From Eledone cirrhosa (taxonomy: Eukaryota), in assembly GCA_964016885.1 (NCBI GenBank), contig OZ024742.1, forward strand, positions 331,824,001 through 331,888,000: DNA of 64,000 bases. Reading direction: 5' to 3'. The notes below the pieces were generated by a model. It made no database searches, was not told the DNA's origin, and saw only the letters and a list, made by a program, of their open reading frames with translations. The position numbers and the translations under genes were made by a program. Every line of letters starts with the position of its first letter. Positions within the stretch are counted from its first letter, which is position 1. This document shows positions 4,054-63,459 of this stretch, one piece after another.

Positions 4054-4172
4054 TTTCCGATGAGCCGCTCTGTTTTTAAATATGTTAATTATTTTCAAAT
4101 GAACCAGATCAATAATGATATATAGTCATTTGATCCAGAAATAATACATGGGGTAGCGAAACAATTGTAAAC
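4054..4172 (+). ncRNA. Degenerate minimal type-I hammerhead with long stem II
   Basis: CCGATGA (4057-4063), GCCGCTC...GGGTAGC stem II base, GAAA (4158), palindromic CAATTG stem III, GUA site. Stem I is weak. Confidence 0.5.
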
Positions 4173-5066
4173 GGACATTATTATTATTAATATTAGTATT
4201 ATTAATATTATTATTATTATTCTCTACATTCCTTACATCAAACTAAAATATATTGACAATCGTTTGAATAATGTCTTTCTTGTGAAATTTGTGGTCTTGT
4301 TTTGCTTAAATAATGAATATATATATATATATATATATATATATATATATATATATATATATATATATATATATATATATATATATATATATATATAATA
4401 TGCCCGTGTTCAATCGGGGGTAACCACAGTAAGTAAGGTACTCAATACAAGGCAGAGTATAAGTGTTTAATATAGAAAAGCTTCTACAGGACTAGAACTG
4501 TTTCATTCGTGAGAAATAATACATGGGGTAGCGAAACAATTGTAAACGGACATTATTATTATTAATATTATTAATATTAATATTATTAATATTAAGGGCG
4601 GTGGATTGGCAGTATCGGTAGAGGGTCGGACGCCAAGCTTTCCAGCATAGTTACGTCCCTTTACGATCTGAGTTCAAATCCCGCCGAGGTTGACTTTGCC
4701 TTTCATCCTTACGGGGTCGATAAAATAAAGTACCAGTAATGCACTGAGTAATTGATGGCCCTGTGCCTAAAGTAGAAACAATTATTATTAATATTATTAT
4801 CATTATTCTCTACATTCCTTACATCAAACTAAAATATATTGACAATCGTTTGAATAATGTCTTTCTTGTGAAATTTGTGGTCTTGTTTTGCTTAACTAAT
4901 GAATATATATATATATATATATATATATATATATATATATATATAAGTATGCCCGTGTTCAATCGGGGGTAACCACAGTAAGTAAGGTACTCAATACAAG
5001 GCAGAGTATAAGTGTTTAATATAGAAAAGCTTCTACAGGACTAGAACTGTTTCATTCGTGAGAAAT
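4136..5066. repeat. Direct tandem duplication of about 380 bp; the second copy carries a SINE insertion
   Basis: 4136-4516 recurs from about 4512 to 5066, joined at AGAAAT microhomology. Confidence 0.85.
4596..4790 (+). mobile_element. Full-length tRNA-derived SINE
   Basis: GGGCGGTGGATTGGCAGTATCGG (A box) ... GAGTTCAAATCCC (B box) ... conserved core ... (ATT)n tail. The upstream duplicate copy shows the empty site. Confidence 0.92.
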
Positions 5067-5078
5067 CATCAAGAAGCT
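5028..5078 (-). ncRNA. Type-I hammerhead ribozyme (C3U variant in this copy)
   Basis: Minus strand reads AGCTTC-TTGATGA-TTTC TCAC GAAT-GAAA-CAG TTCTAGTC CTG-TA-GAAGCT. Stem I has 6 bp, stem III has 3 bp plus A-U, site GUA. Confidence 0.75.
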
Positions 5079-5090
5079 GACTGTTCAAGT

Positions 5091-5142
5091 CAGATTCCCG
5101 ATGATTTCTCACGAATGAAACAGTTCTAGTGCAGTAGAAGTT
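5091..5142 (+). ncRNA. Inverted, degenerate copy of the same hammerhead
   Basis: TTC-CCGATGA-TTTCTCACGAAT-GAAA-CAGTTCTAGTGCAG-TA-GAAG. It forms a hairpin with 5030-5082. Confidence 0.6.
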
Positions 5143-5608
5143 GTTTTCTCTCTCTATCTCTCACTCTCTCTCTCTCTCTCTCTCTCTCTATATATATATA
5201 TATATATATATATATATATATATATATATATATATATATATATATATATATAAGTTGAAAAAAATGAAAACGAAATTTCATTTCTCACTCTAAGTATGGC
5301 ACTTACTTAAATGTAAGTATGTATGTATACGTACATACATATATGTATACAGACGTACAGTAGCATGCATATATATATATATATATATATATATATATAT
5401 ATATATATATATATATATATATATATATATATATATATATATATATATATATATACATACAGGTACACATACATATATAGACGCATCAGTTTAGCGGACG
5501 CTTATTATAACGCCGCTTTGTTCGTTTGTCAACAAACTGAACAGCCTGAATTTATGCCATACAGTGTTAAGGCAACCACGACACCTTTTTGTTCAACACT
5601 GACACAGG

Positions 5609-5653
5609 AACGATGTACTAGTTTCAAGCTTGTTAGCTATCATCAGCACCGTT
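5609..5653 (-). ncRNA. Minimal type-I hammerhead ribozyme, intact core
   Basis: AACGGTG-CTGATGA-TAGC TAACAA GCTT-GAAA-CTAG-TA-CATCGTT. Stem I has 7 bp, stem III is palindromic, site GUA. Confidence 0.88.
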
Positions 5654-6130
5654 TACCCATCTGCCAGATAGTTGAACGTTCGAAAGTATATACATTCCTT
5701 ATGAAAATTAACGGCTGAGCAGCCTAATGGGCATATTGAGTGAGTTAAATCGGTCAGGCATACCGAAAACGATAAGTTAAAAAAAATGAAAACGAAATTT
5801 CATTTCTCACTCTTAGTATGGCACTTACTTAAATGTATGTATGTATGTATACTTACATACATATATGTATACAGACGTACAGTAGCATGCATATATATAT
5901 ATATATATATATATATATATATATATATATATATATATATATATATATATATATATATATATATATATATATATATACATACAGGTACACATACATATAC
6001 GCACGCATCAGTTTAGCGGACGCTTATTATAACGCCGCTTTGTTCGTTTGTCAACAAACTGAACAGCCTGAATTTATGCCATACGGTGTTAAGGCAACCA
6101 CGTCACCTTTTTGTTCAACACTGACACAGG

Positions 6131-61310: not shown

Positions 61311-61754
61311 TTCTGTTAGACGATTGAAATTTTTTACACAAAATTTTTTAAAACAGGTTTTTCACCTCTAGGAGGGGTAAAGATGAGCTGACCCACCACC
61401 TGACAGTTCAGACGGAGGGTCAAGCTACACAATTGTATCAAAATTAAGTTTGAACTCACAAAATTTCCTCAATAAATTTGAACAAAACTTCTGTGCGAAG
61501 TGAATGACATCCACACTGTAGAACAGACGACAGCTAGATTTTTTAGATAGATAGATAGATAGATAGATAGATAGATAGATAGATAGATAGATAGATAGAT
61601 AGATAGATAGATAGATAGATAGATAGATAGATAGATAGATAGATATAGAGAGAGAGAGAAACAGACAGATAGACAGAGAAGGAGAGAGAGAGACTTTAAG
61701 ACCATTATACTGAGAATTAGAAGTGTTCTGCATGCATAACATAGTAATAATATA

Positions 61755-62008
61755 ATAACTGTTTCTACGTTTGGCACAAGGCCAGCAATACACAATTAGT
61801 AATAATATAATAACAAGAACCTATATTGTTTTCAGTATTAAAGGAATATAATTACCCAGTGCATTGCTGGTACTTTATTTTATCGACCCCGTAAGGATGA
61901 AAGGCAAATTAACCTCGGCGGGATTTGAACTCAGAATGTCAATGGCCGTAACTCTATGCGTCAAAGCGTGGCGTCCAACCCGCTACCGATACTGCCAATT
62001 TACCGCCC
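61755..62008 (-). mobile_element. SINE copy, interrupted near its 3' end
   Basis: Reverse complement of the head and core at 61855-62008 and of the tail at 61757-61788. Confidence 0.85.
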
Positions 62009-62459
62009 CAAATGTGAATAGTTTATCTTTAAAATCAGCATTTTCTATTCTCACGAGCATCAAAGATAAGAGTCATATTTTTTCGCTAAACTTTGAATTT
62101 CTCATTCTTTGAAATCGTTTCTGTCCAGATTACTGTTTACACATTTAAAGTTATCTTTTTATTTTTTTCTATTGTATTATCTCTTCATATATACTTATAC
62201 ATATGTATATATATATATATATATATATATATATATATATATATATATATATATATAGTATTAAGGATACTATTTATGGTTATGTATATACTAAAAACTT
62301 TTATAGTTATATATATTTTAAACCCTAAACAGTGAAAGACAGTAATTTATTACTACCTTATTACCAGTAAGATAAATAGCTCAATGTAATAACATCACTT
62401 GTTCTAGAGAGCAGTTATATAGAAATTACATGAATCAAAGTTCTATTCAAATCATTTAT

Positions 62460-62508
62460 TCGCTTACAATTGTTTCTTCCAAACCGAGGTTTGGATTCTT
62501 CGGAGCAA
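62460..62508 (-). ncRNA. Minimal type-I hammerhead, U4C core variant
   Basis: TTGCT-CCGAAGA-ATCCAAAC CTCG GTTTGGAA-GAAA-CAATTG-TA-AGCGA, followed by AATAAA. Confidence 0.75.
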
Positions 62509-62776
62509 TTTTTCAATGATTGTTTACATACTTGACCTCCTTTTCAACACAAGAGAAATACGGAAACATATGTATATCTTGAATATATACATATAAAACT
62601 AAATATAGTTAGAGTTGCTCCTGCCAACATATCTCTACCATCTCTTCTCATATCCTTATCTAAACTCCCATGATCCCCACATACACAGTTGATATACATA
62701 CATCAATATATACATATGTTTCCGTATGTCTCTTGTGTTGAAAAGGAGGTCAAGTATGTAAACAATCATTGAAAAA

Positions 62777-62825
62777 TTGCTCCGAAGTGTCCAAACCTCG
62801 GTTTGGAAGAAACATTTGTAAGCGA
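62777..62825 (+). ncRNA. Second-arm copy of the same hammerhead, further mutated
   Basis: TTGCT-CCGAAGT-GTCCAAACCTCGGTTTGGAA-GAAA-CATTTG-TA-AGCGA. Confidence 0.6.
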
Positions 62826-63459
62826 ATAAATGATTTGAACAGAACTTTGATTCATGTAATTTCTATATCTATATATCTATATATATATATATGTATATAT
62901 ATATATATATATATATATATATATATATATATATATATATATATATATATATACATATAGATATGTATATATATAAGTATATAAGTATGAGGCTCCTGGC
63001 TTAAGACAGACTTTAGACTTTAGATATATATATATATATATATATATAGTAGAATAATCAAGAATCGGAATATCAGCCCACGAAATCACGATAAACAATA
63101 TCCGATATGTGTGGCAGAGGGCTCAATAATTTGGATAAATCAGAGCTATAACTATCGTTAAAATACCAACACATAGAGACCATGCCTAAAATCACCCGTG
63201 CAGCCGAAAAAGAACGACCAGGACGATTCGGGTCACTCAAATAAAATATCAATAAATTAATAATTTAAATAATATATATATACATATTGATTCACCTCAA
63301 GGGGTAGGGCATTGATCAACATGCCTAGACTAGATTGATACAGCTCATTCTGTACCGATGTCATTTCCCACTGAAGCCAATTTTACATTGCAGCTTTAAA
63401 ATTCGTCAAATAATTCCATTCGTTTCGCCTCATTTGGAAGGCATTATTGCTTTCCTTGG

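Follow-up and report, generated by a model that had tools for sequence, protein, structure and literature searches.

Hammerhead-bearing palindromes of Eledone cirrhosa as ends of Hydra-clade Penelope-like elements and of a retrozyme-like repeat, probably formed by twin priming

A 64,000-nucleotide stretch of the Eledone cirrhosa genome (contig OZ024742.1, positions 331,824,001 to 331,888,000, from an assembly of 3.0 Gb; hereafter the window) contains a series of short palindromes with hammerhead ribozyme motifs. We consider it probable that these palindromes are hammerhead-bearing ends of Penelope-like elements (PLEs), or of a tandem repeat, inserted in (TA)n with two head-to-head arms, and that they formed by twin priming of both cut target strands followed by end joining. 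Directly observed in the copies are their coding parents, fixed inner and outer 3′ ends at (TA)n, variable junctions, an asymmetry between the arms that runs both ways and sequence variants shared between the arms. The initial annotation of the window had proposed that non-autonomous ribozyme RNAs, of an undescribed general class, are copied in trans by a PLE reverse transcriptase (RT) and that the cDNA snaps back on itself. Its broader expectation of PLE-related, hammerhead-bearing and TA-targeted elements made by a retro mechanism was borne out.

Results

Inverted repeats and hammerhead motifs in the window

Self-BLAST of the window located all seven inverted repeats where they had been annotated, with arms that are 76–97% identical (Table 1; turn points are numbered relative to the predicted cleavage site, +1 being the first base 3′ of the cut). 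A 2-kb inverted repeat of a coding element, that of family F, lies among the palindromes (6628-8647 versus 9337-11400) and had been missed. The palindrome is not the whole element, one arm extending a further 55–160 nt as a tail before (TA)n, for example at 20809-20885 and 62258-62416.

A strict scan for type-I hammerheads gave three matches with a canonical core (5646-, 6168- and 11883+), compared with a mean of 0.3 (maximum 2) in 30 shuffles of the window, none of which yielded a match with a palindromic stem III; variant cores lie at 5072- and 62503-. In the window copies, the cores of families C (TTGATGA), D (CTGACAA, both arms), E (CCGAAGA) and G (CCGATGA) are damaged or variant, and short copies of B and its relative B′ are without the 5′ half of the core. 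Across genome copies, the core is canonical in A, C (12/14), D (12/14) and F (17/20 regex rows), with a U4C change in E (14/15) and G and CTGAGAA/C in long B copies. Hammerhead monomers fold no better than shuffles (z −0.1 to −1.7), and those of B and F fold as predicted dimers via stem III. An Rfam scan of the window returned no hammerhead family at E≤1, only sub-threshold microRNA matches on TA-rich hairpins. The seven repeats are real features that carry, as annotated, predicted type-I hammerhead motifs or halves of them, but the arms turn at or adjoining the predicted cleavage site in only two of the seven (6538-6627 and 53382-53847).

Coding parents of families B to G

First-look searches of the genome gave 1367 candidates for family B, 531 for C, 512 for D, 823 for E, 253 for F and 224 for G, with 440 for A, 1775 for A′ and 122 for B′, all of which are lower bounds rather than copy numbers. 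In longer copies, the B, C, D, E and G ends are joined in sense orientation to DNA coding for RT and a GIY-YIG-type endonuclease, and the ends of B to G match coding elements at 91–100%. At L169/L170 (L numbers denote loci), an inverted tail-less end of family E is followed by an E-ORF-E-ORF-E arrangement (ORF, open reading frame) with a spacing of ∼4.2 kb. The order RT, thumb, endonuclease is found in L169, L170, L173, L175 and the element in the window; the endonuclease lies directly upstream of the family C end in L177, further coding copies are L178 (D) and L175 (B), and endonuclease-coding DNA is in sense upstream of family G in L314, L317, L319, L321, L328 and L329.

RWR and DKT motifs are present in E (L169, L170 and L173) and RWI and DKT in F, N-termini having been recovered for E and F and not for B, C, D and G. 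The CxCX5C linker reads CNCRSNRTC in E and CNCRNKSNC in D, its last cysteine being lost in the B and F copies seen, and the endonuclease motifs CNLC and CxH occur in E, B and F; no CCHH motif was seen by eye in the endonucleases. Since RWK-like, DKT, CxCX5C, CxxC and CxH motifs are named as marks of the Hydra clade by Craig et al. 2021 (PMC8557442), we assign B, C, D, E, F and G, by motifs and architecture, as 3′ ends of Hydra-clade PLEs with an RT plus a GIY-YIG domain at the C terminus. Profile matches were sparse: the Pfam GIY-YIG family matched one of four proteins weakly (E 0.029, below cut-off), a Pfam search gave no RT family on any coding fragment, and a protein homology search returned 1298 unnamed or hypothetical homologues without clade labels, the best at ∼40–45% identity.

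Most of the roughly five families annotated as distinct and non-coding are thus the ends of coding elements, and copying in trans lacks support for B to G, given how closely their ends match those elements. Their short copies may be either by-products of coding transcripts or self-propagating. As a separate observation, the N-terminal coding part of F recurs without the terminal repeat at a spacing of ∼1.7 kb (L334-L336, L345 and L346; C2 47.11-47.12 Mb), possibly as a satellite derived from element F.

Architecture of the copies

For each of families B to F, we took the 30 copies that scored best against tail-anchored queries, 150 loci in all with the window copies among them; for C and F, the queries extend over part of the shared arm as well. 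These copies were mapped onto natural long ones, and unclear cases were re-examined. An inverted arm is present in 110/150 copies (B 25, C 17, D 21, E 19, F 28); for a short interspersed nuclear element (SINE) found in these loci, the count with an inverted copy alongside is 4/159. All but 11 of these inverted arms (99/110) end at one family-fixed internal site, nearly always beside (TA)n, at +20 in B, +15-19 in C, +44-52 in D, +44-49 in E and +44-54 in F. By a margin of more than 5 nt, the arm that extends further 5′ is the tail-less one in 50 copies and the tailed one in 20, with 37 level and 3 without a call (p=0.0004). At L361, L362 and L175, a tailed arm of 160–240 nt faces a coding tail-less arm of 2.6–3 kb that ends at the inner site, and at L202, L204, L209 and L293 the arms barely overlap or do not overlap, the tailed arm starting about where the other ends. 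In each of the five families, the two arms have more minority variants in common than under permutation (p≤0.007), and 17 locus-private variants are present in both arms.

The 91 junctions called automatically comprise 34 overlaps, 10 blunt joins and 47 inserts. Some inserts are distinctive, including an A run longer than 20 nt (L041) and, in family E, nearby sequence repeated in short tandems (L216, L224, L225 and L234), which suggests untemplated addition and slippage. In the tails of B, C, D and F (for example window 20812-20890 and 11985-12070), visual inspection and folding showed an ACTC..GAGT hairpin directly following the inner site. It is a candidate protein-binding signal, although an alignment of six tails is only 50% identical.

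Reads of two restriction-site-associated DNA (RAD) runs from other samples, aligned to a single-arm B copy, gave TA-flanked ends at +20 (3429 and 2908 reads) and ends at −45 (621 and 646), and strand-changing family B joints are common to the two runs and the contigs. This comparison bears on family B as a whole rather than on the window loci. A pile-up of read ends at −34 was rejected as an element end because it falls on AATT and probably reflects restriction cutting; RAD depth was accordingly left out of the analysis.

Turn points relative to the cleavage site

The initial annotation had the ribozyme define where copies turn. In B to F, however, both arms end within −2 to +17 in only 2/110 copies and tailed arms end there in 13/150, the excess of direct-arm ends at the cleavage site being not significant in F (5/17, p=0.10) or D (3/24, p=0.49); a modest excess is seen in family A (below). 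At least one arm ends within 5 nt of a fixed upstream limit in 18/30 copies of B (−44), 19/30 of C (−45), 8/30 of D (−133) and 15/30 of F (about −122), and in B, C and F the turn is mostly at a fixed point, 44–122 nt upstream of the cleavage site. Because these turns lie upstream of it, the template usually held an uncleaved site; the limit of B also places the start of its short copies within stem II, so that half the core is missing from them. YYA sequences at the limit, together with the internal promoter of Drosophila Penelope (PMC2377424), make it likely that the fixed 5′ limit of short copies is a transcription start inside the pseudo-long terminal repeat (pLTR). A start of the autonomous F transcript at −121 found no confirmation in full-length F copies.

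Twin priming and its alternatives

In the 50 copies whose tail-less arm extends further 5′, each arm holds sequence that the other lacks, and two primings are therefore needed, unless all such differences are later deletions. Minority variants common to both arms point to one RNA or one source, with gene conversion as a caveat, and the overlaps, blunt joins and inserts at junctions resemble end joining. In the scheme that we favour, the endonuclease would cut both target strands in (TA)n. One strand would prime at an internal RNA site, often extending as far as the 5′ end of the RNA, and so yield the tail-less arm; the other would prime at the tail end and copy the same RNA, or one of the same source, for a variable distance while displacing the first cDNA. 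The cDNA 3′ ends would then join by microhomology or short inserts, the hammerhead stems merely providing microhomology. The template would be mostly uncleaved RNA, with hammerhead-cleaved RNA a minor template that is clearest in family A. These copy data fit the in vitro reaction of a PLE protein (Frangieh et al. 2024, PMC11167929), in which both strands of the target are cut and extended, synthesis begins at two internal sites on the RNA that define the tail, and uncleaved RNA is preferred.

Several points weigh against twin priming or against the transcription start that we attach to it. The mechanism is read from end products rather than from observed intermediates, later one-sided deletions could create part of the asymmetry, and gene conversion between arms could create shared variants. 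Moreover, 37/107 resolved junctions are near-symmetric, and short self-copied inserts (L199 and L020) indicate that local fold-back synthesis does occur. The 150 loci are best-scoring and not random, and 26/150 calls were set by eye. In the text of PMC11167929, whose element is a Poseidon, no start-site difference was seen between strands. As for transcription, family E has no sharp 5′ limit, ORF-bearing F copies mostly start elsewhere than about −121, and the YYA at the limit in B, C, D and most F copies is support of a sequence kind.

An unlikely variant of twin priming is that two separate RNAs, one for each subunit of a PLE dimer, are copied independently from both target strands. This would explain overlapping arms without strand displacement, a dimer is predicted for the Anolis protein (PMC11167929), and tandem precursors exist. 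However, the arms share subfamily and private variants, and some tailed arms end at the point where the opposite arm starts (L202, L204 and L209), both of which fit twin priming on one RNA better.

In snap-back, a single cDNA would fold back at a hairpin or at an end set by the ribozyme and serve as its own template. This was the mechanism of the initial annotation and, as self-priming, has been proposed for inverted ends in PMC3846280. Palindromic junctions, the 37 near-symmetric cases and the variants common to both arms all favour it, as do the family A direct arms near the cleavage site and some junctions that lie in hammerhead stems (L038 and window 20930) or have short self-copied inserts. 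Our copy data nevertheless disagree with that proposal and render it improbable. A second arm made by snap-back is always nested in the first, so a single snapped-back cDNA cannot give arms each with unique sequence; a tail-primed cDNA holds nothing upstream of its own end and an inner-primed cDNA has no tail, so one cDNA is insufficient. Yet 50 copies have tail-less 5′ sequence, up to kilobases, that is missing from the tailed arm (L361, L362 and L175 among them), and some arm pairs have almost no sequence in common. Snap-back also leaves the fixed inner end beside (TA)n without a reason, and the rarity of copies with both arms at the cleavage site, like the non-significant excess in F and D, speaks against it. 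It is contradicted as a general rule and remains as a junction-level event only.

Mobility of the palindrome as a unit, either as a DNA transposon resembling a miniature inverted-repeat transposable element (MITE) or as a hairpin RNA copied whole, with centres varied by later deletion, seems very improbable: a recurrent junction with an identical centre (L006, L009 and L012) and the TA flanks favour it, but the termini are unequal, the tail is one-sided and swaps sides relative to the 5′-longer arm, 40/150 copies are without an inverted arm, and the same ends are found on RT-coding elements. Palindromes are a known sequencing artefact, and raw-read support covers family B in other samples rather than the window's own junctions, but a fold-back artefact of assembly or library is scarcely credible when window arms differ by 3–24% and have family-fixed end sites, when raw reads from two other samples, like the contigs, contain joints and TA-flanked inner ends of family B, and when the SINE found in these loci so seldom has an inverted copy alongside.

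A retrozyme-like tandem repeat

Families A and A′ consist of non-coding tandem units with one minimal type-I hammerhead per unit. Hydra-coding DNA near 4/30 A loci and 3/30 A′ loci belongs to neighbouring insertions and was not seen within the unit. Family A has an inverted arm in 17/25 insertions and two fixed 3′ ends 58 nt apart, and its direct arms end at −2 to +17 in 5/25 insertions (p 0.003–0.014), a modest excess at the cleavage site. A′ copies were left uncounted, the search being biased to copies that extend upstream of that site. A/A′ has the appearance of a non-autonomous retrozyme that bears the insertion signature of PLEs; here the annotated idea of a non-autonomous ribozyme element tied to PLEs appears to hold.

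Features of the window

The family G copy in the window has no inverted arm, and a partial duplicate at 4512-4902 has a SINE inside (Table 1). The SINE (window 4582-4789) is recurrently inserted in the family G (ATT)n tract just 3′ of the hammerhead (L302, L308, L309, L312, L314, L315, L320 and L321). PLE ends also form nests, with different families in each other's flanking (TA)n, in L174, L035, L093, L096, L112 and window 3984-12612. At 52758-53116, inverted arms of 94 nt (85%) lie between TA tracts, and inverted pairs of the same sequence occur in L243, L039 and L093; this is probably another family of the same kind as the PLE ends. An inverted repeat around (TC)n(TA)n(GA)n at 53891-54116 has unique arms of 48 nt and, as far as seen, is not a hammerhead family; TA-centred inversions that resemble it occur in L002, L126, L192 and L144. 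Elsewhere in the window are RT-coding elements of the long interspersed nuclear element type (28777-32202, 33315-38925, 42010-43794 and 56001-60873; one open frame of 716 aa), a 1.8-kb tandem duplication (33315-36995) and a 73-nt satellite (1-938).

Table 1. Inverted repeats (from self-BLAST) and element ends in the window, with assignments and hammerhead features as predicted.
Feature	Position	Strand	Details
Inverted repeat	5030-5140		arms 86% identical; turn at −57/−49
Inverted repeat	6538-6627		arms 89% identical; turn at +11 / about +4
Inverted repeat	12159-12520		arms 92% identical; turn at −133
Inverted repeat	20886-20974		arms 97% identical; turn at −23/−25
Inverted repeat	23621-23738		arms 76% identical; turn about −34/−41
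Inverted repeat	53382-53847		arms 76% identical; one arm ends −4, other begins near +39
Inverted repeat	62417-62868		arms 83% identical; turn at −118/−117 around 120-nt spacer
Family G, 3′ end of Hydra-type PLE	3984..4316	+	core CCGATGA 4057-4063, long stem II, GUA site 4169; ends at (TA)n
Family C tailed arm	4948..5085	-	whole hammerhead, core at 5072, predicted cut after 5034
Family C inverted tail-less arm	5088..5140	+	
Family A tandem array, non-coding	5253..6579	-	∼2.6 units of ∼520 nt, internal TA tract, minimal hammerheads 5646 and 6168
Family A short inverted arm	6575..6627	+	begins beside predicted cleavage site; cut off against element F
Family F inverted coding arm	6628..9336	-	RT with DKT motif, thumb, endonuclease; stops and frameshifts
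Family F tailed coding arm	9337..12071	+	RT (YRDD), GIY-YIG-type endonuclease, 3′ untranslated region, hammerhead 11875-11946, tail, (TA)41
Family D inverted tail-less arm	12153..12339	-	ends at +51 beside (TA)n
Family D tailed arm	12340..12612	+	begins at family 5′ limit (−133); core damaged (CTGACAA)
Family B tailed arm	20809..20930	-	3′ half of hammerhead, 77-nt tail, then (TA)n
Family B inverted tail-less arm	20931..20974	+	ends at +20 beside TA
Family B′, older B relative	23621..23815	+	inverted arm 23621 to ∼23680, tailed arm to 23815
Family A′, older A relative, inverted pair	53382..53850	.	left arm 4 nt beyond predicted GUU cleavage site
Family E tailed arm, pLTR of 4.2-kb Hydra-type PLE	62258..62582	-	core CCGAAGA at 62503
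Family E inverted tail-less arm	62703..62868	+	ends at +49 beside (TA)n; 120-nt spacer 62583-62702

Discussion

Our data describe new Hydra-clade families and one retrozyme-like repeat whose architecture is already known. The proposed new class falls away, since inverted 5′-truncated arms, a one-sided tail, TA targeting and opposite-strand hammerhead pairs have been published (PMC8557442, PMC4209133 and PMC3846280), and the copy statistics bear instead on an open question of PLE mechanism, that is how inverted ends form; the formation of tandem and inverted PLE ends is called undefined in PMC8557442. High-copy families supply countable end products that separate twin priming from self-priming and give exact priming sites. 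In the literature searched, which left most subscription papers, Repbase/Dfam notes and bioRxiv supplements outside its scope, we found no miniature PLE palindromes described as a class, nor, with most subscription papers again outside it, twin priming for PLE inversions or inverted arms on retrozymes. A wider proposal seems to us evenly poised between right and wrong: that the short Hydra stubs, in their thousands, record twin priming on one RNA with strand displacement, in place of self-priming; that transcripts from a pLTR initiator propagate as SINE-like elements of 150–250 nt; and that the tandem retrozyme A, with the same signature, is structural evidence that PLE enzymes move retrozymes.

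In L1 twin priming, both target strands prime and an inverted segment is joined head-to-head with microhomology, the internal site being variable and the segments non-overlapping. In the present copies, by contrast, the internal site is fixed and the arms usually overlap, which gives palindromes. The copies resemble MITEs in being short, numerous, hairpin-forming and TA-flanked. A MITE identity was however rejected, since the terminal inverted repeats are unequal, the length is not uniform and the ends are those of RT-coding elements. In genomes of this sort, many TA-flanked hairpins that look like MITEs are PLE ends and prone to misannotation.

Retrozymes have been regarded as non-autonomous PLE derivatives (Cervera and de la Pena 2020, PMC7229834; Li et al. 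2026, bioRxiv 10.64898/2026.07.22.740005). Metazoan non-LTR (long terminal repeat) retrozymes share with A/A′ the non-coding tandem units, a type-I hammerhead per unit and a proposed dependence on PLEs. Family A differs from published retrozymes in its PLE insertion signature; the word 'inverted' is absent from the available text of PMC7229834 and confined to the references in that of the preprint.

The endonuclease-bearing Hydra clade, which includes Hydra-1_Obim and Penelope-13_HM (PMC8557442), is the closest match to B to G in its RT followed by a C-terminal GIY-YIG, its motifs, a type-I hammerhead near the 3′ end and (TA)n targets, and likewise in its partial tandems, inverted 5′-truncated copy and tail on one end. 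PMC8557442 describes the inverted 5′-truncated copy, one-sided tail, TA preference and non-autonomous derivatives, as does PMC8969392, and its supplement includes an Octopus Hydra family with (TA)n targets and hammerheads, one consensus having an inverted 5′ copy and hammerheads on both strands. Opposite-strand hammerhead pairs 100–700 bp apart have also been ascribed to truncated PLEs (PMC4209133). Published tails are however 30–40 nt, compared with ∼55–160 nt here, and units <3 kb, compared with 4.2 kb for E; the present families further differ in their variant cores (U4C in E and G, CTGAGAA in B) and in that most copies are stubs of 100–400 nt with a sharp 5′ limit. Poseidon PAc of Anolis belongs to another clade, and inverted arms are not explained in the text available of PMC11167929, but its reaction shares with the copies described here two internal RT start sites, extension of both strands, an AT-rich target and the use of uncleaved RNA.

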